Shown here: one piece after another, positions 13,507 through 63,518 of the stretch
How the letters are laid out: the number at the start of each line of letters is the position of its first letter
Numbering within the stretch: the stretch's first letter is position 1
IMG/VR virus record: IMGVR_UViG_3300010885_049703
Coordinates: 32,001 to 96,000 of that record
DNA from: a virus
Length of the DNA stretch: 64,000 bases
Direction: 5' to 3' (one strand)
Notes under the pieces: generated by a model
What the model was told of the DNA's origin: nothing
Seen by the model: only the letters and a program-made list of their open reading frames with translations
Databases searched by the model: none
Program-made: the position numbers and the translations under genes

Positions 13507-13607
13507 TGAATTTTTTTAAAAAATGGTGGGATTGGATTCGTTTAGAAATCCGTTACCGCCGCAAACTGCGCGAACTTCGTAAAAGAGATCCGTTCATATA
13601 CAAATGA
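13506..13607 (+). CDS. 33-aa micro-protein ending RKRDPFIYK
   Basis: read from sequence: MNFFKKWWDWIRLEIRYRRKLRELRKRDPFIYK; TAATG and ATGA coupling on both sides. Confidence 0.7.
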   Translation: MNFFKKWWDWIRLEIRYRRKLRELRKRDPFIYK

Positions 13608-15085
13608 ATATCCTAGGTATCTCAGCCGGGTTTCACGATGCTGCAATAAGTCTAGTGGATCATCACGGTGATATACTATTTGCCGGGCACAGTGAACGAT
13701 ACAGTAAAGTAAAGAACGATTCGGACATTTGTCAAGCATTGTTGTCTGAGATTCGTGACTACCAAATTGATACCATAGCATACTATGAACGTCCATTAGC
13801 AAAGCAATTACGACAATGGTACAGTGGGCAAGGCATTGAATGGAACAAGTTGTTGGCCAAGAGTATTGTACGTGATCAATGTGCACCGTGGCTACCCAAC
13901 AACCCCCGACAAATAAAGTCGTTCAATCATCATTTGAGCCATGCAGCAGCAGGATTTCAAACCAGTACTTTTGATCGTGCCACAGTGGTAGTGATAGACG
14001 CTATTGGTGAATGGGACACGGTTAGTATCTGGGGAGCTGAATATGTCAACGGTCGGGCAAAGTATACAAAACTATGGGGACAACGATATCCACATAGCAT
14101 AGGATTGTTTTATAGTGCTATGACTCAACGTGTAGGCCTTAAACCCAACGAAGATGAATACATCTTAATGGGCATGAGTGCATATGGTAAACGTGATCTT
14201 GGGGATGTGATTAGTCATCGTTTCGTACACGATGAAGTTGATATTCTGTTTAAAGAAAACTTACATACCGGCATTGTGGCTGATTATCTTGGATACGCAC
14301 AGGATACAGATATTGCTGCCGGTACACAGGATCTAGCAGAAACGTTGATATACAATGTAATGCGTCGTGCAAGAGAGTTTAACTGGAGCACGAATCTTGT
14401 TTATATGGGCGGTGTTGCCCTTAACTGTTTAGCGAATAGGAACCTTGGTGAATACTTTGAACATATATGGATTATGCCTAATCCTGGTGATGCTGGTAGT
14501 AGCCTTGGTGCTGCGGCACTTGCCTATGGTGGTCGTCTCAACTGGCGCAATGCTTATCTTGGGCATAATATACCTGGGCCATATCCTGTTGATTCCCTTC
14601 TTGATAGCCTACTGGCTGATGGGATTGTTGGTGTTGCTAACGGTCGTGCAGAGTTTGGGCCAAGAGCATTAGGCAATCGTAGTTTGCTGGCAGACCCACG
14701 TGGCGCAGATATAAAGGACAGAGTGAATGAAATTAAGCGACGTCAAAAATTTAGACCATTCGCCCCTGTTGTACTGGAGGAGATGGCTGATCAGTACTTT
14801 GATTTCCACCCTGGGTGGTGTAATAGCCGTTATATGCAGTCAGTCGCTCGTTGTCGCTTTCCTAGTGATTATCCTGCTATCTGTCATCATGATGGGACCA
14901 GTAGAGTACAGACGGTTCCAAAGGACGGTTCAGGAATCAGAGAACTGTTAGAAAAGTGGTTTATACTGACTGATTGCCCTATGCTACTCAACACAAGTTT
15001 AAACATTCGAGGTGAACCAATGGTCAATGATCGCAGCGATGCAGATAGGTTTGAAAATTTATATAAAGTAAAGGTACTAAGTTAA
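13604..15085 (+). CDS. carbamoyltransferase (NodU/CmcH family)
   Basis: ILGISAGFHDAA, HHLSHAA, DAIGE, GGVALNC, EFGPRALGNRS, LLNTSLN. Confidence 0.92.
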   Translation: MNILGISAGFHDAAISLVDHHGDILFAGHSERYSKVKNDSDICQALLSEIRDYQIDTIAYYERPLAKQLRQWYSGQGIEWNKLLAKSIVRDQCAPWLPNNPRQIKSFNHHLSHAAAGFQTSTFDRATVVVIDAIGEWDTVSIWGAEYVNGRAKYTKLWGQRYPHSIGLFYSAMTQRVGLKPNEDEYILMGMSAYGKRDLGDVISHRFVHDEVDILFKENLHTGIVADYLGYAQDTDIAAGTQDLAETLIYNVMRRAREFNWSTNLVYMGGVALNCLANRNLGEYFEHIWIMPNPGDAGSSLGAAALAYGGRLNWRNAYLGHNIPGPYPVDSLLDSLLADGIVGVANGRAEFGPRALGNRSLLADPRGADIKDRVNEIKRRQKFRPFAPVVLEEMADQYFDFHPGWCNSRYMQSVARCRFPSDYPAICHHDGTSRVQTVPKDGSGIRELLEKWFILTDCPMLLNTSLNIRGEPMVNDRSDADRFENLYKVKVLS

Positions 15086-31313: not shown

Positions 31314-32606
31314 TTAATAACGATATGTCTCTGGTTTGAAAGGTCCATTAAGGTCTACACCAATGTAGTCGGCTTGTCGTTGTGTTAGTGTAGTTAGTGT
31401 AGCACCAACGTGAGCTAAATGCAACCTAGCAACCTCCTCATCTATGTGTTTTGGCAACAGATAAATGTCTACTTTGCTGTATTTTGATGAATTGGTCCAC
31501 AGCTCAAGTTGAGCCAACACCTGATTGGTGAAACTAGTTGACATCACGTAACTTGGGTGCCCCGTGGCGCAGCCCAGGTTTACCAGTCGACCTCGGGCCA
31601 ACACAATAATTTTACGACCATCGGGCCATACCACATGGTCTACCAGAGGCTTGATTTCTTCCCAGACCAAGTCTTGTAAGCCGGCAATGTCAATTTCACT
31701 ATCAAAGTGACCAATGTTACACACAATGGCATTACGTTTCATGCGATCCATGTGATGACGAGTGATCACATCAACATTGCCTGTGGCAGTGACAAAGATG
31801 TCGGCTATCTCAGCCGCGTAGTCCATGGTCACAACTTCATACCCGTCCATGGCTGCCTGCAATGCACAGATAGGATCAATCTCAGTAATCCATACCCTGG
31901 CGTTTAATGCACGTAAGGCTTGAGCTGACCCTTTGCCTACATCGCCATAACCAGCAACCACAGCAGTTTTACCTGCGATCATAACATCTGTAGCACGTTT
32001 GATCGCATCCACTAGACTTTCACGACAACCATACAAGTTATCAAATTTTGTTTTGGTGACTGAATCATTGACATTGATCGCGGGAATCTTTAATGTACCT
32101 GCAGCAATACGTTCTACAAGTTTATGAATACCTGTGGTAGTCTCTTCACTGACACCAATGATGCCGGGCAACAGATCAGGATGGCGATCATGCACCCATG
32201 CAGTGAGATCATGCCCATCATCTAACAATAGATTAGGTACCCATCCATTGGGACCGCGTACGGTTTGTTCAATACACCACCAATATTCTTCTTCAGATTC
32301 ACCTTTCCAAGCAAACACTGGAATACCCTGTGCAGCCAATGCGGCTGCTGCATGATCCTGCGTTGAAAAAATATTACAACTTGACCAACGTACTTCGGCA
32401 CCAAGATCAACAAGTGTTTGAACCAATACTGCAGTCTGGATAGTCATATGTAGACTACCTGTGATACGTGCGCCCTGGAGAGGTTTTGTACTACGATACT
32501 TTTCACGCACAGACATCAAGCCCGGCATCTCTTGTTCAGCAATGGCGATTTCTCGTTGCCCCCAGGCCGCTAGGTCAATGTCAGCTACTTTAAAGTCATA
32601 GTGCAT
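31314..32606 (-). CDS. ahcY: adenosylhomocysteinase
   Basis: [54 protein letters not shown]; start at MHYDFKVAD. Confidence 0.97.
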
Positions 32607-35516: not shown

Positions 35517-36932
35517 TTAGAAGCTAATTTGGCCTCTGAGCATAACTGCCTGTTCGCCATCTACACGAGCACCAGATGTACCAACTGGTTTGTTAAACTT
35601 AGTGTCAACGTAGTTTGCCATCAAACGTACATTGTCGTTTAAGAACCAAGTAACACCGTAAGTAATGGAGGTTGCTAGGTTTGCTTTACCTGTTGCAACA
35701 GTGATATCTTCAGCATTGAACTCACTGGCACGTACACCAACTTGCCATGCACCCTTGCCACCACTTGTGTAAGCAGAGTTAGGTTTGATCCAACCAAATA
35801 TACCATCTTTGTAGTTGTGGCTCTCACCCGTGATATTATAGATTGCCTGAACATAGTGACCAGTAATCTCTTTATCTGTACCAGTAGCGGGGTCATAGTT
35901 GAAGTTGAAATGCTCACCTTGCAATTTCAAACCCTTCCAAGCAAATGCTGCTTCAATGCCTTGGCGTGTTCGTGCGGTATCACCACTCAATGCTGATGAT
36001 CCTGTGAACCATGCACTTTGCTGGCGGCCTTCAGTACGACCACTGGCAGGAGCAACTCCAGTTTTGACATTGCCTGTGCTGTATGCTGCACCCAAGTGTG
36101 CCACAAAGTCTTTGTTCTGAATTACTTCTGCAATGTTTGTAGTCACACGTCCAACAACATCTACACCATCAACTGCGGTGCTCTTGTTAGCACGACCACG
36201 GCTTAGTGCCACAGCGTAGGTAAATCCTGTTCTAGGAATACCATGTAACATCACACCAGTTTCTTTGGCAGGAATAAATTCACCTTCAGTCTGACCAATC
36301 AAACTACGTTCCATGAAGTCAATGTTGTTGGAACTGGTCAACTGTTCTAAACTGAAAGGCATCTTAAATGTACCAACTTGTAGTTGTGCCTCTGTGATAG
36401 CAGCATAGTTAAACCAGAATTCATCAATGGTTGATGTGGTTGAACTTGCGCCAGCGTCGTTACCAAAGTTTGCCAAGAGAAGATATTTGAAGTCTTTGGC
36501 AATCTGTCCACGTACACCAAAACGTCCACGACGAACTTCCAATGTGTCTTGATATGGATCGGTTGATTGACCAGAACTAAATGTTTGAGTATAACTTCTG
36601 TAGTCCATGTGAATACGACCAGTAAACTGTGCTGTGGTATTGCCATCTTTGGATTTGATACCAAGACCATTTTCCATCACAGCGCCATCATTCGCTCTGC
36701 TCAAACGATAGTTGTTGCTGTCCTTGACATCTTTGTCAATTCTAGATGATTGGAATTCTTTGTTTTCCAAACGATCCCGGTGTGCTTCAATTTTAGAAGA
36801 GTGTTCTTGCTTAGATAGAATTCCTTTTTGTAAAAGAATATCTAATGTATCAGTGTATTCATCTGCTTGCACAGATCCAGCAAACGACAAGGCAATTGCC
36901 AGCGCCGCTGTTAGCATTTTAAAGTGTTTCAT
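35517..36932 (-). CDS. phosphate-selective porin OprO/OprP family
   Basis: signal peptide; GRIHMDY, RRGRFG, PFSLEQLTSS..FMERS; C-terminal Phe; adjacent to pstS. Confidence 0.85.
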   Translation of the reverse strand: MKHFKMLTAALAIALSFAGSVQADEYTDTLDILLQKGILSKQEHSSKIEAHRDRLENKEFQSSRIDKDVKDSNNYRLSRANDGAVMENGLGIKSKDGNTTAQFTGRIHMDYRSYTQTFSSGQSTDPYQDTLEVRRGRFGVRGQIAKDFKYLLLANFGNDAGASSTTSTIDEFWFNYAAITEAQLQVGTFKMPFSLEQLTSSNNIDFMERSLIGQTEGEFIPAKETGVMLHGIPRTGFTYAVALSRGRANKSTAVDGVDVVGRVTTNIAEVIQNKDFVAHLGAAYSTGNVKTGVAPASGRTEGRQQSAWFTGSSALSGDTARTRQGIEAAFAWKGLKLQGEHFNFNYDPATGTDKEITGHYVQAIYNITGESHNYKDGIFGWIKPNSAYTSGGKGAWQVGVRASEFNAEDITVATGKANLATSITYGVTWFLNDNVRLMANYVDTKFNKPVGTSGARVDGEQAVMLRGQISF

Positions 36933-40040: not shown

Positions 40041-40075
40041 TATTTAAGGTCATGTACATTACAGATACGTTACAT
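40041..40075 (-). promoter_or_regulatory. Pho-box-like promoter of the plcP-like operon
   Basis: ATGTAAC-GTAT-CTGTAAT, 11 nt, then TAAATA; same geometry as at pstS. Confidence 0.7.
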
Positions 40076-40078
40076 CAT

Positions 40079-40102
40079 GAAAAAGCCCGCCGAAGCGGGC
40101 TT
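40079..40102 (-). terminator. intrinsic terminator of the tmRNA gene
   Basis: AAGCCCGC-TTCG-GCGGGCTTTTT. Confidence 0.85.
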
Positions 40103-40405
40103 ACTATTTTGGGTTACAAGGCATAGTTGCCCCGGGGATTACGCTGCGAGAGCGAAAACCTCGTCGTTAGCTGCGTTTGCAGTTACTAGTTTGCTTGGAT
40201 TACGTCCATCGCCTGGCGTGTTGCCTTCTTTGCTATCTCACCCTGTCGAAGCCAGGTCTGGCCCATCAGAAACATACTTCGTCCTGCAGTACGGTCCTTT
40301 TCACAAAGAGTCGCACGGTCTGCAAATATGTTTCTGGTGGACCAGGTGGGAGTCGAACCCACGTCCAGAATGCCTTTACTCCAAAGGAATTACAACAATT
40401 CTTAA
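40103..40405 (-). ncRNA. ssrA: tmRNA, circularly permuted (two-piece)
   Basis: acceptor piece with T-arm ending CUGGUCC-ACCA at 40335 lies upstream of the coding piece starting GGGCCAG at 40264 (G3:U70 pair); tag ORF ANAANDEVFALAA* at 40180-40139; outer ends approximate. Confidence 0.92.
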
Positions 40406-40412
40406 TAGTCGC

Positions 40413-40835
40413 TTATTTATTTTGTGGTTGATAATCCACGTTGGGCATACTATACAATAGAAAATTGTGACTGACTGCATCAAATCTAATCTTGAACATG
40501 CAGACTCCCGGCTCGTCAAGGTAACCATAGCTGCGCTTTATGCCTCCACGTTTTAATCTATAAACGCAAAAATGATCAAGGTCTATCAACGGTTCACCGC
40601 CTAACTCAATCAGTTCCACAATCACTGCGCTGTCTGTGTCTGTTCTTTCTATTACTTCTACACCTACACTTGCAATAGTTGTGACATCATGAACAAAGTC
40701 AAATCGTACCAGGGCAGGCTCAACTTGTTGACTAGATACCGGGTCTCCCAATATCTGCCAACGTATGGCATTGCCTTTAGATCTGATGTATAACGAAAGA
40801 TTTCTTTGATTTCTTGGCTTCAATGTATTGTTCAT
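40413..40835 (-). CDS. hypothetical protein
   Basis: ORF downstream of the B12-type radical SAM; start uncertain. Confidence 0.5.
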   Translation of the reverse strand: MNNTLKPRNQRNLSLYIRSKGNAIRWQILGDPVSSQQVEPALVRFDFVHDVTTIASVGVEVIERTDTDSAVIVELIELGGEPLIDLDHFCVYRLKRGGIKRSYGYLDEPGVCMFKIRFDAVSHNFLLYSMPNVDYQPQNK

Positions 40836-42324
40836 AAACTTCTTGTTGTTCGCGCAGCATTCTATCAGCTTCTTGACCATCGCGGTCACCAAATCCTAGT
40901 TCGTGTTGTAATTCTAAAAAGCGCCGATATCGATCAAATCGTCTTTCATAGGTATTGTCTGGATTAGTTGGTGTACTCCAAAAAATATGACTCCATCCCT
41001 TGACCACATTCTCTCTTTCAAAATGATAATGATCACGCAATCTACTATCATTGGTTAGTGGTACTTGATCACCAAGAGTAAATGGCGACGAGATGGCTAC
41101 ACTCAATAATCCATCGTTTGCCCAGTGCCGATAACGACGCAACAAATTCAATGTTTCTTCAAAGTCTTCTTCAGTTTCCATTGGATAGCCGGCCATGAAC
41201 AACCATACTTGTTTTATACCATTGTCATGCAATTGATGCGCAGTATAATCAATGTCAGTATTGCTGAATTTTTTACGCATGTCATACCGTATACGTTCAC
41301 TGCCGCTTTCTACTCCAATTATCCATTCAGAACATCCTGCTCGCCCTGCCAGTTCAAAGTCTCGAGGAGGTTGATTTTCTTTACCTCTAAAAATTGCATA
41401 ACCGCTGTAACGCAATGTACGTGGCAAGTGATCTGCAAGATATTGATTCATTTTACGGTAGTTTGGTATGCTGCCGTTGATCAAGTTACCACTGAATCTA
41501 AAAAAGTCTATGCCTGTCCGATGATAACTTTTGATCATTTCTTCGGCCAACAGTTCACCATCTTTGAAAATATATTTGGGCCAAAGATGTTCTACATCAC
41601 AAAAGGTGCATTTTCTAACACAACCTTTGCTGTCTGTGATCAGCAGATATCGATCACTAGGATTAAATCTTTGATAGATATCAAAGTCGTAGTTGTCCCA
41701 ATCAGGAATAGGCACTGCATTTAAGTCTTGACTGGTTTGTGGTGGCGAGTCAACTATACCATACAGATCTTGTTGTATGACATCAATGATAAATGATTCA
41801 GCGTCACCTGTCACTACACAGTCTATCATGCCATGGTCTACTAGAAACCTAGCTCTTGATCCTGTGGCATGAGTATCTCCAGTGTATTCACCTTGAGTTA
41901 AAATTTCTAGCCCGCGACCTCCGGCTAATATTTTTACTCCAGGAAGCCAGCGTCGAATGCTGTAACACATCAAGGTCAGATATGTTTCACTCATGACACT
42001 AAACACGCTCAATCCAACAATATCAGGATTGTATTTTTGTTTTATACCAATAAGTTTTTGTTTGTTCCATTTGAGAACATCAATCAGCACTCTTCTTGGT
42101 AGTTTACGATCAGGATTTGGGCCTTGACTGATATAAAAAAGCAATTCAGGCCAATAAGGTTTGTCCACAAATTCAGTTACAAATTCTGCAGCAAGATCCA
42201 TGGGTACAGCACTTATGCCGGCTTTGTTTAAACAGGCACTGAGCAAAGCAGGAGCTGTGGCAGGCCAGCCTGGGGTCTGATAGGGTAGACTAACAATGAC
42301 TATGGTGCGTTTATCAGTTGGCAT
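40777..42324 (-). CDS. B12-binding-type (class B) radical SAM protein
   Basis: PALLSACL, VGLSVFS, LAGG, GDAE, SKGCVRKCTFC, GVESGS, GYPMETEEDF. Confidence 0.85.
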   Translation of the reverse strand: MPTDKRTIVIVSLPYQTPGWPATAPALLSACLNKAGISAVPMDLAAEFVTEFVDKPYWPELLFYISQGPNPDRKLPRRVLIDVLKWNKQKLIGIKQKYNPDIVGLSVFSVMSETYLTLMCYSIRRWLPGVKILAGGRGLEILTQGEYTGDTHATGSRARFLVDHGMIDCVVTGDAESFIIDVIQQDLYGIVDSPPQTSQDLNAVPIPDWDNYDFDIYQRFNPSDRYLLITDSKGCVRKCTFCDVEHLWPKYIFKDGELLAEEMIKSYHRTGIDFFRFSGNLINGSIPNYRKMNQYLADHLPRTLRYSGYAIFRGKENQPPRDFELAGRAGCSEWIIGVESGSERIRYDMRKKFSNTDIDYTAHQLHDNGIKQVWLFMAGYPMETEEDFEETLNLLRRYRHWANDGLLSVAISSPFTLGDQVPLTNDSRLRDHYHFERENVVKGWSHIFWSTPTNPDNTYERRFDRYRRFLELQHELGFGDRDGQEADRMLREQQEVYEQYIEAKKSKKSFVIHQI

Positions 42325-42495
42325 TGTGATCTTCTTGTTGGGGTTTAAACAAGTATTCATGCCATAATGCATAAGCAAATACCACCAGGCATCCAGTCAA
42401 CATTGTGCCAAGTAAAAACCCAATAACAAAGTATAACTGTTCGGTGCCCATTAAACTACTTATGGAGCAGGGTACCGTGACCGTTAAACAATTCA

Positions 42496-42569
42496 TGGAG
42501 CGGGGTACGAGAATCGAACTCGTTTAACCAGCTTGGAAGGCTGGGACACAACCAATATGCCAACCCCGC
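42496..42569 (-). tRNA. tRNA-Gly(UCC)
   Basis: cloverleaf, anticodon loop CTTCCAA, encoded CCA. Confidence 0.93.
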
Positions 42570-42577
42570 ATCATCCT

Positions 42578-43420
42578 TTATACGTTTGATGCTGCGACAA
42601 TATGATTATGCATGATTTCTTTTACTTTGTCAAATCTTTGATAACGATTTTGAGCACCCATAACGACCACAGCATACGTGCGACCGTTTTGTTCAACAAC
42701 TACTCCCACACAATATCCAGCTGGATTGGTAAACCCAGTTTTGCTTACCACCACTTCGGGAAAAGCCAACAGCACCATGGTATTGGTATTCGGTACATGG
42801 CTAACGTTGGTGTACGTTTTGTGTTTACGATGCACCACAGTGGTAGTTGCCAAATCTTGATAGGTTGAAATTCTACGTATGATTTGATATCCATATGCTG
42901 CCTCCAACATTCTCCCAACATCTTCGGCAGTACTGACATTGGTTTGAATGCGACCTGACGGATCATCAAAGTGGGTGTTCAACATAGCCAACCGTGATGC
43001 CTTGTGGTTCATGGCATCAAGAAATGCAGTACGACCACCAGGATAATCGTGACTTAAAAATTCTGCCACATTATTGTCACTGCGTATCAACAACCGTTGA
43101 AATAATTGTTCTCTAGTCACTAACCGACCTTGATACTGCACGGTCTGTTGAAGATTGGTGTTGCCGTCAAGGCTTACCATTGCAGTCATTAACTTAGTCA
43201 AACTGGCCATTGGCCTTACCAGTTGAGTTCCATGTCCTACGATAGGTGATTGTGTTTTGATGTCATAGGCCCATACACTGATGGGATTCACTGTGCGAGC
43301 AGAATGATATTTTGCTTTTTTAACTGTTGCGTGATGCGAATGATGATGGTGACGTTTTTTAGCTTCAGCAGTGTTGACTAAACATGATAATGCAATGGCT
43401 ATTAATAATATTTTTTTCAA
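42578..43420 (-). CDS. D-Ala-D-Ala carboxy/endopeptidase (peptidase S11, PBP7-like)
   Basis: signal peptide; ASLTK (SxxK), SDN, KTG. Confidence 0.9.
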   Translation of the reverse strand: MKKILLIAIALSCLVNTAEAKKRHHHHSHHATVKKAKYHSARTVNPISVWAYDIKTQSPIVGHGTQLVRPMASLTKLMTAMVSLDGNTNLQQTVQYQGRLVTREQLFQRLLIRSDNNVAEFLSHDYPGGRTAFLDAMNHKASRLAMLNTHFDDPSGRIQTNVSTAEDVGRMLEAAYGYQIIRRISTYQDLATTTVVHRKHKTYTNVSHVPNTNTMVLLAFPEVVVSKTGFTNPAGYCVGVVVEQNGRTYAVVVMGAQNRYQRFDKVKEIMHNHIVAASNV

Positions 43421-43481
43421 TGGGCACCTCGTCTAAATAGTTCAGGCAAAAAGCCTGTTTAATATTTAGCTGGTTTTTTTT

Positions 43482-43556
43482 TGGTCCGGCGTGCAGGAAT
43501 CGAACCCACATTCTAGAGGTAGAAGCTCTATGTCCTATCCGTTGAACGAACGCCAG
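43482..43556 (-). tRNA. tRNA-Arg(UCU)
   Basis: cloverleaf, loop CTTCTAC, encoded CCA. Confidence 0.92.
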
Positions 43557-43566
43557 TTGTTTTAAG

Positions 43567-43591
43567 AAAAAGCCCAGTGACACTGGGCTTT
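43567..43591. terminator. intrinsic terminator after dnaK
   Basis: AAAGCCCAGT-GTC-ACTGGGCTTTTT on the minus strand. Confidence 0.8.
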
Positions 43592-43595
43592 AATT

Positions 43596-45473
43596 TTATT
43601 TGCTTTCTTTGAAGTCGGCATCAACTACTGTTTCATCTGCTGATTGTGCGGACTCAGATGCTTTGGCTTTGGCCTCAAAGATTGGAGCAGCAGCCTTGAA
43701 CAATTCATCCAGACCGGATTTAATTGCTTCCAGGTCATTGCCTTGAACAGCAGTTTCAACCGCAGTGATTGCAGTGTTGACAGAAGTTTTTTGTTCCTCA
43801 GTTAACTGTGATTCAACTTCTTTCATTTCAGCGCGAATCATATGTAACTGTGATTCGGCCTGGTTGCGTGTTTCAATAGATTCACGTTGTTTCTTATCGG
43901 CCTCGGCATTGAGTTCAGCATCCTTGATCATCTGTTCAACTTCGGCATCACTGAGGCCAGAGTTGGATTTGATAGTGATTTTGTTTTCTTTGCCGGTATT
44001 TTTGTCTTTAGCTGATACATGCATGATACCATTGGCATCAATGTCCAATGTTACTTCAATTTGTGGCTGACCACGACGTGCTGGTGCAATGCCTTCAAGG
44101 TTGAATTCGCCCAATGATTTGTTGTACTGAAACAGTTCACGCTCGCCCTGTGCAACTTTGATAGTCACGGCAGGTTGATTGTCGTCGGCAGTGGAGAACA
44201 CTTGGCTATGCTTGGTGGGAATAGTGGTGTTCTTGTTGATCAACTTAGTGAACACTCCACCTTGTGTTTCAATACCAAGGCTCAAGGGAGTTACGTCAAG
44301 CAACAATACGTCTTTGCGCTCGCCGCCCAACACAGCACCTTGCAAGGCAGCACCTGCAGCCACTGCTTCGTCAGGATTGACATCATGTCGTGGCGCTTTG
44401 CCAAACAGTTTCTCAACTGCTTCTTGTACCTTGGGCATACGTGTTTGACCGCCAACAAGTATAACTTCATCTATGTCTGCAGCAGTGACTTTGGCATCGG
44501 TCAGGGCCTGACGGCATGGCGCCAAACTGCGTTGAATCAATTCTTCCACAAGGCTTTCTAACTTGGCACGAGTCATCTTGACATTTAAATGCTTGGGACC
44601 TGTGGCATCAGCAGTGATATAAGGCAAGTTTACATCAGTTTGTGCGCTGTTTGACAATTCAATCTTTGTGCGTTCAGCAGCTTCTTTGAGACGCTGCAGG
44701 GCCATCACATCGGCCTTGAGATCAACCCCGGACTCTTTCTTGAACTCGTCAACAAGATGATCCATGATACGTTGGTCAAAGTCCTCACCACCTAGGAATG
44801 TGTCACCATTGGTTGACAACACTTCAATTTGTTTGTCGCCGTCAACGTGGGCAATCTCAATAATTGAGACGTCAAATGTACCACCACCTAGGTCATACAC
44901 AGCAATCTTGCGATCGCGTTTGTCTTGTTTGTCCACGCCATATGCCAAGGCCGCAGCAGTTGGCTCGTTGATAATGCGCAACACTTCCAGGCCTGCAATC
45001 TTACCTGCATCCTTGGTGGCTTGACGTTGACTATCGTTGAAGTAAGCCGGCACAGTGATAACTGCCTGTGTGACTTCATGGCCAAGATAATCTTCTGCAG
45101 TCTTTTTCATCTTACGCAATACTTCGGCTGAAATTTGCGGAGGTGCTAGTTCTCGATCGTTAGCGCGAACCCAAGCATCGCCATTGCTGGCTTCCATGAT
45201 TTGATATGGCATGAGGTCAATGTCTTTTTGCACAGCTTGTTCTTTGAACTTACGTCCAATCAAACGCTTGGCTGCATAGATTGTATTCTTGGGGTTTGTC
45301 ACTGCCTGACGTTTTGCCGGTGCGCCAACTAACACTTCGGCGTCGGTGTAGGCAACAATTGATGGCGTAGTACGTGCGCCTTCTGAATTTTCAATTACTT
45401 TTGGGGTTCCATTTTCTACAACAGCCACGCATGAGTTGGTGGTTCCGAGGTCAATACCTATAATTGTGCTCAT
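43596..45473 (-). CDS. dnaK: chaperone DnaK (Hsp70)
   Basis: [42 protein letters not shown]; AAGGAG SD. Confidence 0.98.
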
Positions 45474-45563
45474 TGTTTTCTCCTTTGAAGTAAGCAAGAT
45501 TTTGCAAATGCCCTGTCGGCACATTTACAAGTAATTATTTATTTCACATTATAACACACTTAG

Positions 45564-45638
45564 TGCCCCTGCTCCGAGTCGAACGGAGATAATTTTCCCT
45601 TTTGAGGAGAACGACTTTACCAATTTGTCCACAGGGGC
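45564..45638 (-). tRNA. tRNA-Leu(CAA), short variable loop, no encoded CCA
   Basis: GCCCCTG/CAGGGGC acceptor stem, loop CTCAAAA, T-arm CTCCG-TTCGACT-CGGAG; followed by CTA. Confidence 0.85.
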
Positions 45639-45642
45639 ATGT

Positions 45643-45879
45643 TTAGTTTGACCAGGTCAGCATGAATAGAGTACGATGTTCATTCCAGCGGAATGCCACA
45701 CCTATGTTATACAATATTTCACAGTCATCATACGCCCAAACACTGTATCTTGGGCCTATGCATTGTTTGAGCCACTCTTCAATAGAATACACTCCCTGGA
45801 TCCAATCTACTTGGGCATTGCCAAGTACGGGCCAAGGAACAGTTGCATGAAATTGGAATCTATGCCAGTCCACTAACAT
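45643..45879 (-). CDS. small phage protein (F.L.W family)
   Basis: ends AFRWNEHRTLFMLTWSN; TAAATA 5 nt upstream. Confidence 0.6.
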   Translation of the reverse strand: MLVDWHRFQFHATVPWPVLGNAQVDWIQGVYSIEEWLKQCIGPRYSVWAYDDCEILYNIGVAFRWNEHRTLFMLTWSN

Positions 45880-45902
45880 GCAAATATTTATTTTATATCC
45901 CC

Positions 45903-46151
45903 TTATTTTTTGTTCATTCTTTCACGTTCAAGTTGTTCTTGATAGAGTTTTTCCTCTGCGTCATCCTCGGCTAAAATTCCAGCACGGCGCTCTTCGTCGG
46001 TTTCTATCTGATCTACATTGGCATTTAATTTTTTGATATCTTCTTCAATTGCATGCTGGTCACTGTGATCCCCGCGTAGTTTGGACATTTCTCGTTCATA
46101 CCGTGTTACAAGGCTAGGTTTAACATGTTGCCTTATCCAATCAGTTGGCAT
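45903..46151 (-). CDS. hypothetical acidic coiled-coil protein
   Basis: start at MPTDWIR after AGGA SD, downstream of tRNA-Trp. Confidence 0.55.
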   Translation of the reverse strand: MPTDWIRQHVKPSLVTRYEREMSKLRGDHSDQHAIEEDIKKLNANVDQIETDEERRAGILAEDDAEEKLYQEQLERERMNKK

Positions 46152-46169
46152 GACAATTTCCTGGTTATT

Positions 46170-46243
46170 TGGCTCCGATGGACAGAATCGAACTGCCACT
46201 CACGGTTTTGGAGACCGTTGCACTGCCATTATACTACACCGGA
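46170..46243 (-). tRNA. tRNA-Trp(CCA)
   Basis: cloverleaf, loop CTCCAAA, encoded CCA. Confidence 0.92.
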
Positions 46244-46932
46244 ATTACTATAGTTCTTACAACGTAATCAGCAAACTCTTGATGCGCGGACTCGTCAAAA
46301 TGCATACGGCCGGTGGGAGTAAATTTTTGTTCAATGCACCAATCTAAAAATACCGGGGCAATCCAATCATACCTTTTTAAAACTGCTGCGTCATCAATGG
46401 GCCAGAAACTGTCTATGTTGATAACTTTGATGCCGGCATAAATTGCAAGTTGATTTAATGTGACAATATTTTTTATTTTGTTTAATCTTCCCACTACAGG
46501 ATCAGTGGCAAACACTATCCAGTGATTTAGATATTTCTGATATAACTTGCGTTGATCAATCCATTGGTAGCGTTTTTTAACGACTTTCTTGCGTCCTTCT
46601 CTCACAACATCATCTGGTTCAGTGCGCAACCATCCTTCTAGTCCTGCTGCCAACGGCAACCATTGTTGGTTTTCTTGCGAATAGATTTCTGAACGATCAC
46701 ATCCAGTCAAGCAGGCAATTACAATGTCATTGCTGGATAGGGATGACAGTTCTCTTTCAAAAATCCTAAACATAGCATCATTGCTACCTCCGGCAATGGC
46801 GTGATTTAGGGGCCGATATCCTAGACTCTGTGCAATTTTCACAGCATAGCTGTGAGAGTAGTTGTATTGATCGTCGCTGCTGATTTCCGAACCAGCAGCA
46901 TGACTACAACCCAATATCAATGCCTGTTTCAT
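46234..46932 (-). CDS. SGNH hydrolase-like protein
   Basis: LGCSHAAG, GGSND, HFDESAH; paralog of 51278..51985. Confidence 0.6.
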   Translation of the reverse strand: MKQALILGCSHAAGSEISSDDQYNYSHSYAVKIAQSLGYRPLNHAIAGGSNDAMFRIFERELSSLSSNDIVIACLTGCDRSEIYSQENQQWLPLAAGLEGWLRTEPDDVVREGRKKVVKKRYQWIDQRKLYQKYLNHWIVFATDPVVGRLNKIKNIVTLNQLAIYAGIKVINIDSFWPIDDAAVLKRYDWIAPVFLDWCIEQKFTPTGRMHFDESAHQEFADYVVRTIVIPV

Positions 46933-46958
46933 ATGCCTACTTAGCTGTGAACCAGATA

Positions 46959-47126
46959 TTAATGCACTGCTTCTTTTGTATTCACTTCACACTCAACTAC
47001 CCAATTATTGAATTGTGTGAATGTACTTACTTCTACCCCGAGTCCCACAGCTTCGTTGACAAAATGTTGCAACAACGAATTATACAACTCATCGGGCATT
47101 GTATCTTTGGCAAATTTAATTTTCAT
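46959..47126 (-). CDS. small hypothetical protein (55 aa)
   Basis: read from sequence: MKIKFAKDTMPDELYNSLLQHFVNEAVGLG..; AGGGA SD. Confidence 0.55.
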   Translation of the reverse strand: MKIKFAKDTMPDELYNSLLQHFVNEAVGLGVEVSTFTQFNNWVVECEVNTKEAVH

Positions 47127-47151
47127 TGTCAATCCCTAGATCTAAAGTAAA

Positions 47152-47356
47152 ATGCTCTGCGTCCCGCGGCGGTAATTATACTGTGTCAGTAAACATGTCC
47201 TCTTTCAAGGGGAATACCTCTACAGCCTCCACCCGCTCCACGACCGGGACCGTTCTCGCATTGCCAGCGCCGTTTCGGTTGGAACGGTACCACCCGTGCT
47301 TGTCATAGCACTTCTCATCCTCCGGGTCAGAGTATCCAGTGACGCTGGAACGGCGC
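47152..47356 (-). ncRNA. unidentified GC-rich multi-pseudoknot RNA abutting the tRNA-Ser 3' end
   Basis: several long-range complementary segments (see findings); no credible CDS. Confidence 0.65.
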
Positions 47357-47444
47357 TGGCGGAGAGTATAGGATTCGAACCTATGCGCCACTTTCGCAAC
47401 GACAGTTTAGCAAACTGCTGCCTTGACCACTCGGCCAACTCTCC
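47357..47444 (-). tRNA. tRNA-Ser(GCU)
   Basis: long variable arm, loop TTGCTAA, encoded GCCA. Confidence 0.93.
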
Positions 47445-47565
47445 ATAAATCTAGTTGCTCTACCATATTGAAACACACTATACAACAGGTTTAGGTCTGC
47501 TTCTATATCCTGTCACGGCGTAGTATGAAGTTATCTCTAGACCTTGGCCGTAATGTGCTTTAATA

Positions 47566-47640
47566 TGGTACACGGTAGGGGAATCGAACCCCTCTTCCAT
47601 CCGTGAAAGGGATGTGTCCTAACCGATAGACGAACCGTGC
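47566..47640 (-). tRNA. tRNA-Glu(UUC)
   Basis: cloverleaf, loop CTTTCAC, encoded CCA. Confidence 0.93.
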
Positions 47641-60079: not shown

Positions 60080-61231
60080 TCACTTGTCAAGCCCAAGTTC
60101 TTCTTCTAGTTGGCGAACTGGAGAACTCCAGTCATTGGTGAAGTTTCTTATGTACTGAATGTTATCTAAATCTTTCTGGGTTTGTAAAACAATTTCTTCA
60201 TTGGCAAAGTGTATGACCAATCCTCGACGTAAGGCAGTTTCCAAAAGTTCCTGGCGATAGTCATTGTCATCGGGTAAACTGAAAATACTAAACATGATGA
60301 GATGATTGACATTGCTGGTGTGAATCATGCTTTTCAAATGTGCATGATTTAGTCCTTCGTTCTCACCGTGTTGATAGGGAAACTTGTATCCTTTCTTGGT
60401 ACAATAATGTCGAACTGCCAAGGTTTGGAAATGCAGATCAATGTTGCGTGTTTTGACACCATCGTACTCCATGTAGCACACTACAATATCTTTGGATTCA
60501 TCAATAGATACCACTGCTTCTGAACTTTGATCGTGCAGTGGTCTAAAATATGCACCAGGCCATTTGCGGTGTGGCTGACCATCTCTAACCAGCAATCTGA
60601 TATCAATACTGACACGAGTCTTATCAGTGCGGTTGGGAATATTGCCATGAATGTGTTCTTGGAAGAACAAATGCGCCTGACCAGGTTGCAATGTAATTGG
60701 CCAACTGTTGTCAGCACAAGTAGAGTCTAGGTATTCATAGCTCCAGTTTTCGCGTTTGGCCTGGCGTGTTATTTCCCTACTCTTATCCAGATCCATGATC
60801 TGCATTGAGTTAGATTCAAAACATGGAGTGAACGGCATCCACACAGTTCTAAGTCCAAGTCCGTTGCCTACCCACCGGCCTTGATGGAAGATCAACACAG
60901 CACCAAACTTGTCTTGATTGGGTATCAAGATTCGTAAGTTACCAAATTTTTGAATTAACACATCGGTGCCCAGTTGTGGAACAACATGCTCAGATACAAT
61001 TTCATCAAAGTGTTGATAAAAATCAGTTTTCAGCAAGGCATGACTCACAGTGTTTTGAACACGTTGTATGTCATGCGGTGGAATAACTTCATGTAGTGTA
61101 TCCAGTGATGTGGCATTGGGATACAATTTTTGAATCTCACCTAAAATGATAGCCGGCATGGGATGCTGGCCTAGATCATAATCTAAGGTTTGATTATCAA
61201 ATGCTGCTTGGTCTTGAGTCAATTGTGTCAT
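60080..61231 (-). CDS. Fe(II)/2OG enzyme (PhyH-like) with HxG motif, fused to a C-terminal domain resembling 'sporadic carbohydrate cluster' proteins
   Basis: FHQGRW..VWMP..HIHGN.PN..RVSIDIR; C-terminal RHYC..FSIFSLP..IHFANE. Confidence 0.65.
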   Translation of the reverse strand: MTQLTQDQAAFDNQTLDYDLGQHPMPAIILGEIQKLYPNATSLDTLHEVIPPHDIQRVQNTVSHALLKTDFYQHFDEIVSEHVVPQLGTDVLIQKFGNLRILIPNQDKFGAVLIFHQGRWVGNGLGLRTVWMPFTPCFESNSMQIMDLDKSREITRQAKRENWSYEYLDSTCADNSWPITLQPGQAHLFFQEHIHGNIPNRTDKTRVSIDIRLLVRDGQPHRKWPGAYFRPLHDQSSEAVVSIDESKDIVVCYMEYDGVKTRNIDLHFQTLAVRHYCTKKGYKFPYQHGENEGLNHAHLKSMIHTSNVNHLIMFSIFSLPDDNDYRQELLETALRRGLVIHFANEEIVLQTQKDLDNIQYIRNFTNDWSSPVRQLEEELGLDK

Positions 61232-63003
61232 AGTGTTTCCATCCTATTTTTAATAAGTCCTTTTCTTCTTGCAGTGTAAAAATCCCCAGTTGGACTTGAA
61301 CTTCTGGCAGTGAATTTATACATAGTAGATTCATGAGCTCCTGTTATTATATTATAACTGGTTGTCAAAGTCAACGGATACTGTTGATCAAAGTCAACAA
61401 TAAACCCGCGTTGTAATTCAATCAAATCTTGGTCAACTTCTGTCAACATTGACAGAGCCGACAACGCCAACTCGGCAGCGTCTTGTTGATGCTGGTACAT
61501 GAATTCATAACTGATGCTATGAATTGCATGCCCTCCCACTCCATCAATCACTCCTTGTGTGAGATACCGATGTGTTTTGCTACGCACAGTATGATAATGT
61601 TCTTGAAATACTGTACTAGTGGATATCAATTTAAATAACTGATCATACAACGTTTGATAGGCAATATTTTTAACTTGTCGAGCATATCTTGCAATAATTT
61701 GTGTATATCCCATGGCATGCCAATGTATGATCATCCAGGCATAGACATATCCTTCAATGATATCGTCTGTGGTCATAGTGCTGGTGCCTGCAACGATCTC
61801 AGTTTGCTCGGCCACCGCATCTTGATCACGACTATCAAGATTCATATAATCTTTGACCCATATGGTTTTTAATCCATACTGTTGTCGACTCTGTGCAGTG
61901 GCCAATTCACTATTCTCTAACATCTGAGCGAACCATATGTCTATGGAATTATGTTGCCCCAACTCCAATAACTCACAAAGTCCTTGAATCCACGTATGCT
62001 TGGTTTCTAATGGTAATCCGATGATTACTTCGGTGTATGTCGGCACTTGATATTGTTCACTGAGCTGCATGACTTCTCTGATATTGTTGACATCAAGATT
62101 TTTTCTTTTGATAGCCTCTAACGTAGATTCATTCATACTCTGTACGCTGACAGTAACACCACGCCCATATGGTCCTAGGGTCTTGGCAATTTCAAATATT
62201 GCATTGGTACTATTTTTGGCATACTGTATGTTGATGACTTCTATTGCGGAGTTTTCAGCTCGTTGTCGCATAAGCCTGCTGATCTCTAAATCTCTGTCAA
62301 CGAAAATTCCAAAATTAGCATCTGCACAAAAAATATATGCCACTTGATGTGAAGCAGCCCACTCCAACTCACTGTCAACTCTTTCAAGCCCAAAGCGTTT
62401 TATTTTACTGTATGTCACTCCGCCCCAGTCACAAAAGGTACAAGCATATGGACAACCACGGTTAGTTTCCAAGGTCATTGCCCAAACTGCATCAGGGTTT
62501 GCTGATATTATATTGTCAAACACTCCTGTGAGATACGGACTTGGTATATCTAAGTCTTGTAATCGATCAGCAGGATATAACGCATCCACGGTGTTGTTGT
62601 GTAATATACTTCTCAGTATCTTTACAAAACTTTCTTCACCTTCGGCCAGTGCAATAGCATCAATAAACTGATGTGCATACATTTGCGAGGAACTCTGAGG
62701 CCCACCAAATATTATCACACAATCAGGAAATTTAATTTTTACTTGTCGGGCCAACTCCAAACAATACTGTTCGTTCCACATGTAGCAGCTGAAGCCACAC
62801 AGCACAGGATCATCAAGCTCACAAATGACTTGATCAATCGGGTCTCGGCGAAAGTACAATCCAGCAAGTTGAAAATTATCAACTATGTCTGTGAACTGAC
62901 CGGCATAACTCCAAAGACATCCGGCACTGTAAGGTAACCAATAATTAGGCTTGTTCTGAAACTCTACAACATATTGCGGTTGAAACAAGTATACATTCTT
63001 CAC
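61228..63003 (-). CDS. B12-binding-type (class B) radical SAM protein
   Basis: GFSCYMWN, FGGP, EGEE, ETNRGCPYACTFCDWG, DANFG; GTG start coupled to the upstream stop. Confidence 0.87.
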   Translation of the reverse strand: MKNVYLFQPQYVVEFQNKPNYWLPYSAGCLWSYAGQFTDIVDNFQLAGLYFRRDPIDQVICELDDPVLCGFSCYMWNEQYCLELARQVKIKFPDCVIIFGGPQSSSQMYAHQFIDAIALAEGEESFVKILRSILHNNTVDALYPADRLQDLDIPSPYLTGVFDNIISANPDAVWAMTLETNRGCPYACTFCDWGGVTYSKIKRFGLERVDSELEWAASHQVAYIFCADANFGIFVDRDLEISRLMRQRAENSAIEVINIQYAKNSTNAIFEIAKTLGPYGRGVTVSVQSMNESTLEAIKRKNLDVNNIREVMQLSEQYQVPTYTEVIIGLPLETKHTWIQGLCELLELGQHNSIDIWFAQMLENSELATAQSRQQYGLKTIWVKDYMNLDSRDQDAVAEQTEIVAGTSTMTTDDIIEGYVYAWMIIHWHAMGYTQIIARYARQVKNIAYQTLYDQLFKLISTSTVFQEHYHTVRSKTHRYLTQGVIDGVGGHAIHSISYEFMYQHQQDAAELALSALSMLTEVDQDLIELQRGFIVDFDQQYPLTLTTSYNIITGAHESTMYKFTARSSSPTGDFYTARRKGLIKNRMETL

Positions 63004-63518
63004 TGCTGCAGCCCAGTGATTTGCATAGTATACCTGGAATGATTGCCAAAGTTTCCGGCTATGTGCGTGGCAGTTCCAGTCCAGGACACCCAATCACCGG
63101 CTCTCCAGTCATCAAAGCATTGACCATCACAGTGAAAGATTTGTCCCATTTGCCAGTTGGTCAAAAATATCAACACTCTTGTGATAGTTTCAATATCTGT
63201 AACATTGTGATTCTTGCTGTATCTTCTATACAAATCACCATGCAATGGTTGTATAAGTCCGGGCTGCATGTGATGAACAACTATAAATTTTTCTTTGAGT
63301 TCAGGCCACGGATCTTGGTGCCAAAAGTTATTGGTGTTGATGTCATCGGCAACTTCCAGTGAAATCATATCCCAATAGCGATCACGATCAGCTACATCAC
63401 TCCAGACATAGATATCTTCGCCACGACTGGGACTGTCAGACATATCCTTGCGTTGATAAACCAACTGATCTAATGTCTGTTGATTCCAAATTGGATCAAT
63501 ATGTCCGTGTCTGATCAT
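63000..63518 (-). CDS. 2OG-Fe(II) oxygenase-like protein
   Basis: PLHGD...THIAGN...RYTMQITG. Confidence 0.7.
   Translation of the reverse strand: MIRHGHIDPIWNQQTLDQLVYQRKDMSDSPSRGEDIYVWSDVADRDRYWDMISLEVADDINTNNFWHQDPWPELKEKFIVVHHMQPGLIQPLHGDLYRRYSKNHNVTDIETITRVLIFLTNWQMGQIFHCDGQCFDDWRAGDWVSWTGTATHIAGNFGNHSRYTMQITGLQQ

Follow-up and report, generated by a model that had tools for sequence, protein, structure and literature searches.

A tightly folded, pseudoknotted RNA encoded once per genome in huge uncultured phages, often directly after a tRNA gene

Directly downstream of a tRNA-Ser gene of a huge, uncultured phage lies a genuine gene whose product is a tightly folded, pseudoknotted RNA; phages of this kind have it once per genome. 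The RNA belongs to a family that is phage-specific and uncatalogued. The DNA analysed (hereafter, the window) is a stretch of 64,000 nt, positions 32,001 to 96,000 of the IMG/VR virus record IMGVR_UViG_3300010885_049703. A first-pass annotation of this window had proposed a new structured non-coding RNA at this place, and that proposal is now strongly supported by a large covarying family, absent from Rfam 15.

The tRNA-Ser(GCU) gene, with an encoded CCA, occupies positions 47357-47444 on the minus strand (ARAGORN; Rfam tRNA, 62 bits). Its CCA ends at 47357, at the 5' side of the element, and the first-pass annotation had likewise put the RNA directly after a tRNA-Ser CCA. It is followed by (i) a 3-nt spacer, GCG (47354-47356, minus), which in alignment A1 is carried only by the window and by member L027; and (ii) the family-conserved structured RNA itself, of about 202 nt (47152-47353, minus), which is defined by A1 and by its full-length agreement with the family profile (positions 3-200 of the model; nhmmer, E = 6e-49). 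The 205 nt past the CCA have a GC content of 57.6% vs 42% in the surroundings, and the tract is non-coding, because the reading frames of its homologs are closed and their length differences are not multiples of three. A GC-rich, non-coding tract had been described as starting at the base after the CCA; composition and lack of coding stand, but the family-conserved part begins 3 nt further on. The next ORF begins 27 nt beyond the 47152 end of the element (minus), and no terminator was found in the window between the two. On the other side, a candidate promoter lies upstream of tRNA-Glu (47566-47640, minus).

Since the window's record, at 114 kb, is about 33% complete, the phage must be huge. 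Six tRNAs, DnaK and a permuted tmRNA of the beta type are encoded on this record, besides several metabolic genes. The tmRNA (40048-40497, minus; RF01850, 154 bits; RF04321, 140 bits) is a permuted, two-piece molecule of betaproteobacterial type with the tag peptide ANAANDEVFALAA, and this type hints at a betaproteobacterial host. The six tRNA genes (42496-47640, minus) do not form a tight array and alternate one by one with ORFs: DnaK (43596-45524) and an S11 D-Ala-D-Ala carboxypeptidase (42578-43420) are encoded between them, and a radical SAM protein (40777-42378) is among the products of the interleaved ORFs. The auxiliary genes of the phage include those for a phosphate-selective porin O/P homolog (35517-36932, minus), a carbamoyltransferase (13604-15085, plus) and a B12-binding radical SAM protein (61228-63093, minus).

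The exact 18-mer CTGGCAATGCGAGAACGG of the tract is present in 87 IMG/VR contigs. With two further pattern scans and an nhmmer profile, the family reaches about 143 copies in IMG/VR viral contigs (119 of them distinct), which are approximately 170-270 nt long and can be aligned end to end. Exactly one copy was found in each of four phage records that are 92-99% complete (320-349 kb), and the 114-kb record of the window likewise has a single one. No match on the element was obtained with Rfam 15, whether for the whole window at gathering thresholds, for the window region at E up to 10, or for nine member loci in a permissive search at E up to 5. When the element was compared by blastn with 50,697 GenBank phage records, there was no match either, and the matches first obtained corresponded to the tRNA only. 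In cellular genomes, at least 120 places share a 16-mer with the element, which is about the chance expectation, and nhmmer recognized no family member among the 16-mer matches listed. A literature search by motif and topic yielded no description of the RNA family. As a separate matter, the short motifs CUGACCC..CAGAAGUGAA, GGUAGU and AUGCGAGAG resemble 5S rRNA. This resemblance is not homology: the 5S rRNA model (RF00001), run over the entire phage record at E up to 10, found nothing, and 14 of 14 control genomes were matched by it.

In what follows, the RNA is numbered from the G after the CCA, so that position p equals window coordinate 47357 minus p, and all coordinates of its parts refer to the minus strand. 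The fold is based on mutual information and pair counting on A1, an alignment of 105 sequences. Its 47 pairs are standard in 95.2% of the cells, and changes on both sides are seen at 34 of them. The covariation score is 0.472 vs 0.166 for shuffled alignments, the observed score having been reached in none of 500 shuffles, and pairing falls to 37-45% when partners are slid by 1-3 columns. In the window's own sequence all 47 family pairs are standard, and helices H1 to H7, the kissing loop between H1 and H3, and the pseudoknots PK1 and PK2 can all be formed. Two of the checks that the first-pass annotation had envisaged, a comparison with Rfam and a collection of homologs for covariation, came out in favour of a new RNA family.

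The 5' half of the molecule consists of four hairpins and a linker: (i) H1 (RNA 8-22, with 8-12 paired to 18-22; 47335-47349), where all 5 pairs show double changes; (ii) H2 (RNA 25-37, with 25-28 paired to 34-37; 47320-47332), with double changes in 4 of 4 pairs and 100% pairing; (iii) H3, with the loop UGAC (RNA 46-61, with 46-50 paired to 57-61; 47296-47311), again with double changes throughout (5/5); (iv) the linker GGGUGGU (RNA 62-68; 47289-47295), which pairs with the H2 loop in PK1 and with the H4 loop in PK2 and is 99% paired; and (v) H4, with the loop AACCGA (RNA 70-87, with 70-74 paired to 83-87; 47270-47287) and double changes in 4 of 5 pairs. Then follows the near-invariant block CGCUGGCAAUGCGAGAA (RNA 88-104; 47253-47269), made up of invariant columns in A1 and supported also by the exact 18-mer of 87 viral contigs.

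The 3' half is closed by H5, a long helix with two bulges. Its 5' strand (RNA 105-112; 47245-47252) has double changes in 8 of 8 pairs, and its 3' strand (RNA 191-200, bulged at 197 and 199; 47157-47166) was placed by pair counting. H6 joins RNA 121-124 (47233-47236) to RNA 185-188 (47169-47172; pair counting), and its pair C122-G187 covaries, being CG in 80 sequences, UA in 14 and AU in 10 (100% paired). H7 (RNA 131-177; 47180-47226) has a covarying base, 131-135 with 173-177, with double changes in 3 of 4 base pairs, and a variable tip, which differs in length across A1. In the window, this tip is a CCUU-GAAA-GAGG cap; most relatives have instead a UGAU/UGAU, k-turn-like internal loop. The molecule ends with the conserved 3' tail AGCAU (47152-47156; A1), beyond which the next tRNA of relatives begins after 2-8 nt.

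Three long-range contacts tie the hairpins together. In the kissing loop, GUCA of the H1 loop pairs with UGAC of the H3 loop, and G14-C55 is GC in 68 sequences and AU in 27; in an alternative type of 5' domain, AACG/CGUU kissing loops replace GUCA/UGAC. In PK1, ACCC of the H2 loop pairs with GGGU (RNA 62-65), and in PK2 the remaining GGU of the linker (RNA 66-68) pairs with ACC of the H4 loop, so that a single 7-nt linker joins two hairpin loops in one continuous stack. Both pseudoknots are all but invariant, and the exceptions are compensatory: GUCC/GGAC for PK1 in L039, L183/L205, L203, L180 and L193, and CUU/AGG for PK2 in L039 and L183/L205. Furthermore, C61 and A77 covary (MI 0.70), which is a further tertiary contact, from the base of H3 to the H4 loop.

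Between these paired parts, A1 has long near-invariant unpaired blocks, namely GAUGAGAA, CGCUGGCAAUGCGAGAA, GUCGGGAA, GGUGGAGG, UAUAAUUA and the 3' AGCA; RNA 88-104, 113-120, 125-130 and 177-184 are such blocks. Within them, CGC-UGGCAAU-GCG never varies and could form a 3-bp hairpin with a T-loop-like loop of 7 nt. For the conserved AACG at the 5' end, RNA 115-118, 98-100 and 88-89 were tried as pairing partners, and no covariation was found in A1.

Some members depart from the common plan. The closing helix (RNA 105-112 / 191-204 in A1) exists in two forms, GAAC-GGUCCCNG ... CNGGGA-NG-CAGAGCA and GAAU-CCUCUCUGG ... GCAGAGAGG-AAGCA, which differ in lengths and bulges and have the 3' AGCA in common. 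One or two extra hairpins (30-50 nt) are present between the GGGUGGU linker and H4 in L023, L032, L071, L072, L184, L188 and L191 (A1 columns 78-128) and, in consequence, the junction between linker and H4 must tolerate expansion. A purine-purine covariation links RNA 119 and 130 (A/A in 50 sequences, G/G in 32; A1), and in three members G125 changes to A jointly with a change of A181 to G; these patterns suggest non-canonical pairs or triples in the internal loop between H6 and H7. A relationship to T-box RNAs was considered and rejected: GGGUGGUACCG of the window is similar to the T-box motif, but conservation is limited to GGGUGGUA, a strand engaged in PK1 and PK2. The discriminator base of the upstream tRNA mismatches the invariant C94 (Tyr, Pro and Ala being frequent), and G92 is A in 16 of the 105 members with no compensating change.

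The first-pass annotation had also called the RNA pseudoknotted, and it is, though by other helices than those proposed. The fold that it put forward is mostly wrong: on A1, that set of helices is paired in 71% of the cells, and its covariation is 0.055 vs 0.053 after shuffling. What holds are two local hairpins, UCCAG/CUGGA and GUGCU/AGCAC, which are real, covarying and identical with H1 and H3, and the CCUU-GAAA-GAGG hairpin, a plausible tip of H7 in the lineage of the window. Among the others, (i) ACCGUUC/GAACGGU is 66% paired with no covariation, and ACCGUUC is the 5' strand of H4 and not part of a long-range helix; (ii) CUCUG/CAGAG is 74% paired, again with no covariation, CUCUG lying in H2 and part of CAGAG being the H5 3' strand; (iii) CCCG/CGGG is 65% paired, equally with no covariation, CCCG belonging to H2 and its loop and CGGG to the H5 3' strand; and (iv) GGUGGUA/UACCGCC is paired in 97% of the cells only because its strands are nearly invariant. 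In its sole variable column, U65 does not covary, and the rival partnership C122-G187 does. For the same reason, GGUGGUA/UACCGCC was rejected as a switch helix alternative to H6, since it is not maintained at that column.

The most conspicuous of the proposed helices, a 12-bp GCCAGCGCCGUU/AACGGCGCUGGC that would capture the GCCA end of the tRNA, is confined to the window and its twin L027, and the columns concerned pair in 50% of the family's cells. Thermodynamic folding prefers this helix, but the method ignores pseudoknots and is contradicted by the family. In the window's lineage the 5' edge reads GCG-CCGUU, and H4 uses CCGUU/AACGG; the GCG spacer and the tRNA GCCA extend the complementarity to the invariant CGCUGGC (47353-47360 with 47263-47274, minus). 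In an unprocessed precursor, the 12-bp helix would be in competition with the T-loop-like hairpin, H4 and PK2. It may be a precursor fold peculiar to this lineage, or it may be due to chance, a coincidence among the 119 members being estimated as quite conceivable though short of even.

Turning to genomic context, 56 of the 119 members (47%) begin no more than 6 nt from the CCA end of a tRNA, with ten isotypes represented. The spacing between CCA and element varies from 0 to 5 nt, and is 3 nt in the window. A tRNA lies within 30 nt downstream in 33/119 members (28%), often at 2-8 nt. Roughly half of the members lack a tRNA directly upstream, and at some loci none lies within several kilobases; where a tRNA is adjacent, the copy adjoins only one of the 20-30 tRNAs of the genome. 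Downstream features vary as well, including tRNAs, MazG-like proteins and other unrelated genes. No universal neighbouring protein family was found among the 119 loci, the most frequent neighbour being a phosphoesterase, phrog_547, which is encoded within 4 kb in 29 of them, including the window. On one viral contig (L208), a cobalamin riboswitch (RF00174, 94 bits; 2163-2280, plus) is situated about 1.2 kb downstream of the RNA copy.

Three loci appear interrupted. In L038 (1410-2205), L073 (12952-13747) and L039 (1561-2401), a complete copy is preceded, at a distance of about 600 nt, by a displaced 5' remnant of some 40-58 nt, and an ORF of 178-199 aa separates the two; a weak NUMOD3 motif was found in the ORF of L038. 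The complete copies in L038 and L073 carry the alternative 5' module (ACCCGCC..., with the loops AACG/CGUU). It looks as though a homing-endonuclease-like ORF had brought its own replacement for the piece that it displaced. Homing endonucleases insert in highly conserved essential genes.

With respect to function, the RNA is, on balance, likely to be a stable, trans-acting molecule that is excised from a tRNA-operon transcript by host tRNA-processing enzymes, a reading favoured here with modest confidence. The gene would be transcribed within the tRNA-operon transcript, as the candidate promoter upstream of tRNA-Glu and the lack of a terminator before the next ORF suggest, and host tRNA-processing enzymes would then release a discrete, stable RNA. 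Its 5' end may be set when the 3' end of the upstream tRNA matures, and RNase P may set its 3' end at those loci that have a tRNA next downstream. Once free, the RNA would work in trans: its many invariant unpaired bases would let it bind a conserved protein or RNA, or serve as a scaffold for it, and this partner would most plausibly have to do with tRNA or translation. This reading is favoured because the layout matches that of the T4 tRNA cluster, where rnaD and rnaC lie directly after tRNA-Arg. Those stable RNAs, species 1 and 2 (rnaC, 139 nt; rnaD, 119 nt), are likewise structured non-tRNAs directly after a tRNA in a phage cluster, and are presumably released by tRNA processing. On the other hand, they have no sequence similarity to the giant-phage RNA when compared by eye, and they carry tRNA-like T-arm or CCA features that the giant-phage RNA lacks; the giant-phage family is, in addition, larger and far more conserved across phages. 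The endonuclease-like insertions may also be counted in favour of excision and action in trans, by analogy with those seen in highly conserved essential genes. Three points speak against it: (i) with only 0-5 nt to the CCA, an endonuclease such as RNase E would hardly have space to act, which favours self-cleavage; (ii) no conserved neighbouring protein gene indicates a partner; and (iii) the invariant unpaired bases would suit a binding surface and a catalytic core equally well.

The first of these points leads to the alternative of a new class of self-cleaving ribozyme that would cut at or near its own 5' edge, with a fold different from, and larger than, that of the theta ribozymes. Such cleavage would, in the manner of theta ribozymes, free the CCA end of the upstream tRNA or separate an upstream ORF. 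Of the theta ribozymes, which are minimal HDV-like ribozymes, 58% of occurrences have the cleavage site at most 5 nt from the 3' end of a phage tRNA (PMC10879173), a share similar to the 47% of members that begin within 6 nt of one. Both are pseudoknotted phage elements whose 5' edge abuts a tRNA 3' end in about half of the occurrences. However, the giant-phage RNA lacks a conserved P1, P3/L3 and P1.1, is three times larger and is present in one copy per genome; it comes from huge phages represented solely by metagenomic sequences, whereas gut phages harbour over 80% of the theta ribozymes (PMC10879173). A compact, doubly pseudoknotted core with many invariant unpaired bases would be in keeping with catalysis, and the phosphoesterase phrog_547, near 29 of the 119 loci, could in principle heal a cyclic phosphate, although this linkage may just reflect a gene order common to related phages. 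Self-cleavage is nevertheless unlikely. There is one copy per genome, beside one of 20-30 tRNAs, and a tRNA directly upstream is missing in about half of the members; hence, tRNA maturation is an improbable purpose for the RNA. Moreover, the spacing to the CCA is variable, the conserved 5' bases found no partner among those tried, and 200 nt of extreme conservation far exceed what known self-cleavers of this kind need. The broader proposition of a new natural class of catalytic RNA, which comprises, besides a self-cleaver freeing the CCA end of its neighbour, a ribozyme acting in trans on tRNA 3' ends, likewise has a low probability. In the latter case, the invariant UGGC in the T-loop-like hairpin would dock NCCA, by analogy with the T-box and with L15 of RNase P.

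A less probable alternative is that the GUCA and UGAC loops join separate molecules into homo-oligomers, like the rings of phi29 pRNA or the cages of ROOL and GOLLD. Covariation is blind to whether a pairing is intra- or intermolecular, and GOLLD and ROOL are phage-linked RNAs that form kissing-loop oligomers (PMC12286853). But within one molecule a mere 35 nt or so separate the two loops, so that an internal kiss is feasible, and neither sequence nor models revealed any similarity to pRNA, GOLLD or ROOL. The likeness to GOLLD (RF02032) and ROOL (RF03087) is that of ornate, phage- or prophage-associated RNAs with kissing loops, often near tRNA genes; these RNAs are, however, 3-4 times larger, and the giant-phage RNA has no Rfam match. 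As for phi29 pRNA (RF00044), it is also a phage RNA with two covarying, complementary 4-nt loops, but its model does not match the element, its loops pair one molecule with another on the portal of small podoviruses, and both its genomic context and the rest of its fold are unlike those of the giant-phage RNA.

A cis-regulatory leader or riboswitch for the downstream gene has very little to recommend it: an ORF does begin 25-35 nt after the element in the window and several relatives, but the downstream gene varies from member to member (a tRNA in 28%, otherwise MazG and other unrelated genes), which makes regulation in cis unlikely, the Shine-Dalgarno site lies outside the conserved element, and no terminator follows the element in the window. 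Lastly, membership of the HDV-like or theta ribozyme family, of which the crossed helices had reminded the first-pass annotation, is refuted, and hardly any credence is left for it. The element sits directly after a tRNA CCA, and a GCGA motif with the invariant C99 after a helix loosely recalls J4/2, with no P1-P4 in which to place C99; yet the models RF00094, RF02682, RF01787, RF01788 and RF00622 matched neither the window region (E up to 10) nor nine member loci (E up to 5), the P1-like 8-bp helix is confined to the window and L027 (its columns being 50% paired in the family, with no covariation), the place of P3/L3 is taken by 7 nt only (CAACCGA), which are the loop of the covarying hairpin H4, the supposed 5' strand of P2 is the 5' strand of that same local hairpin, and the size is about 200 nt vs roughly 60-70 nt.

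Few RNAs of 200 nt unite sequence conservation near the level of rRNA with a kissing loop and two pseudoknots. Known RNAs of such conservation and knotting are mostly ribozymes, riboswitches or the cores of RNA-protein machines. The covariation-backed fold is suitable for an Rfam entry, for structure probing and for cleavage assays, and the RNA could add a new class of ribozyme. It is confined to huge uncultured phages, where it lies amid genes that re-tool host translation (tRNAs, tmRNA, DnaK), and its target, once found, would reveal a novel means by which giant phages interfere with tRNA or translation.
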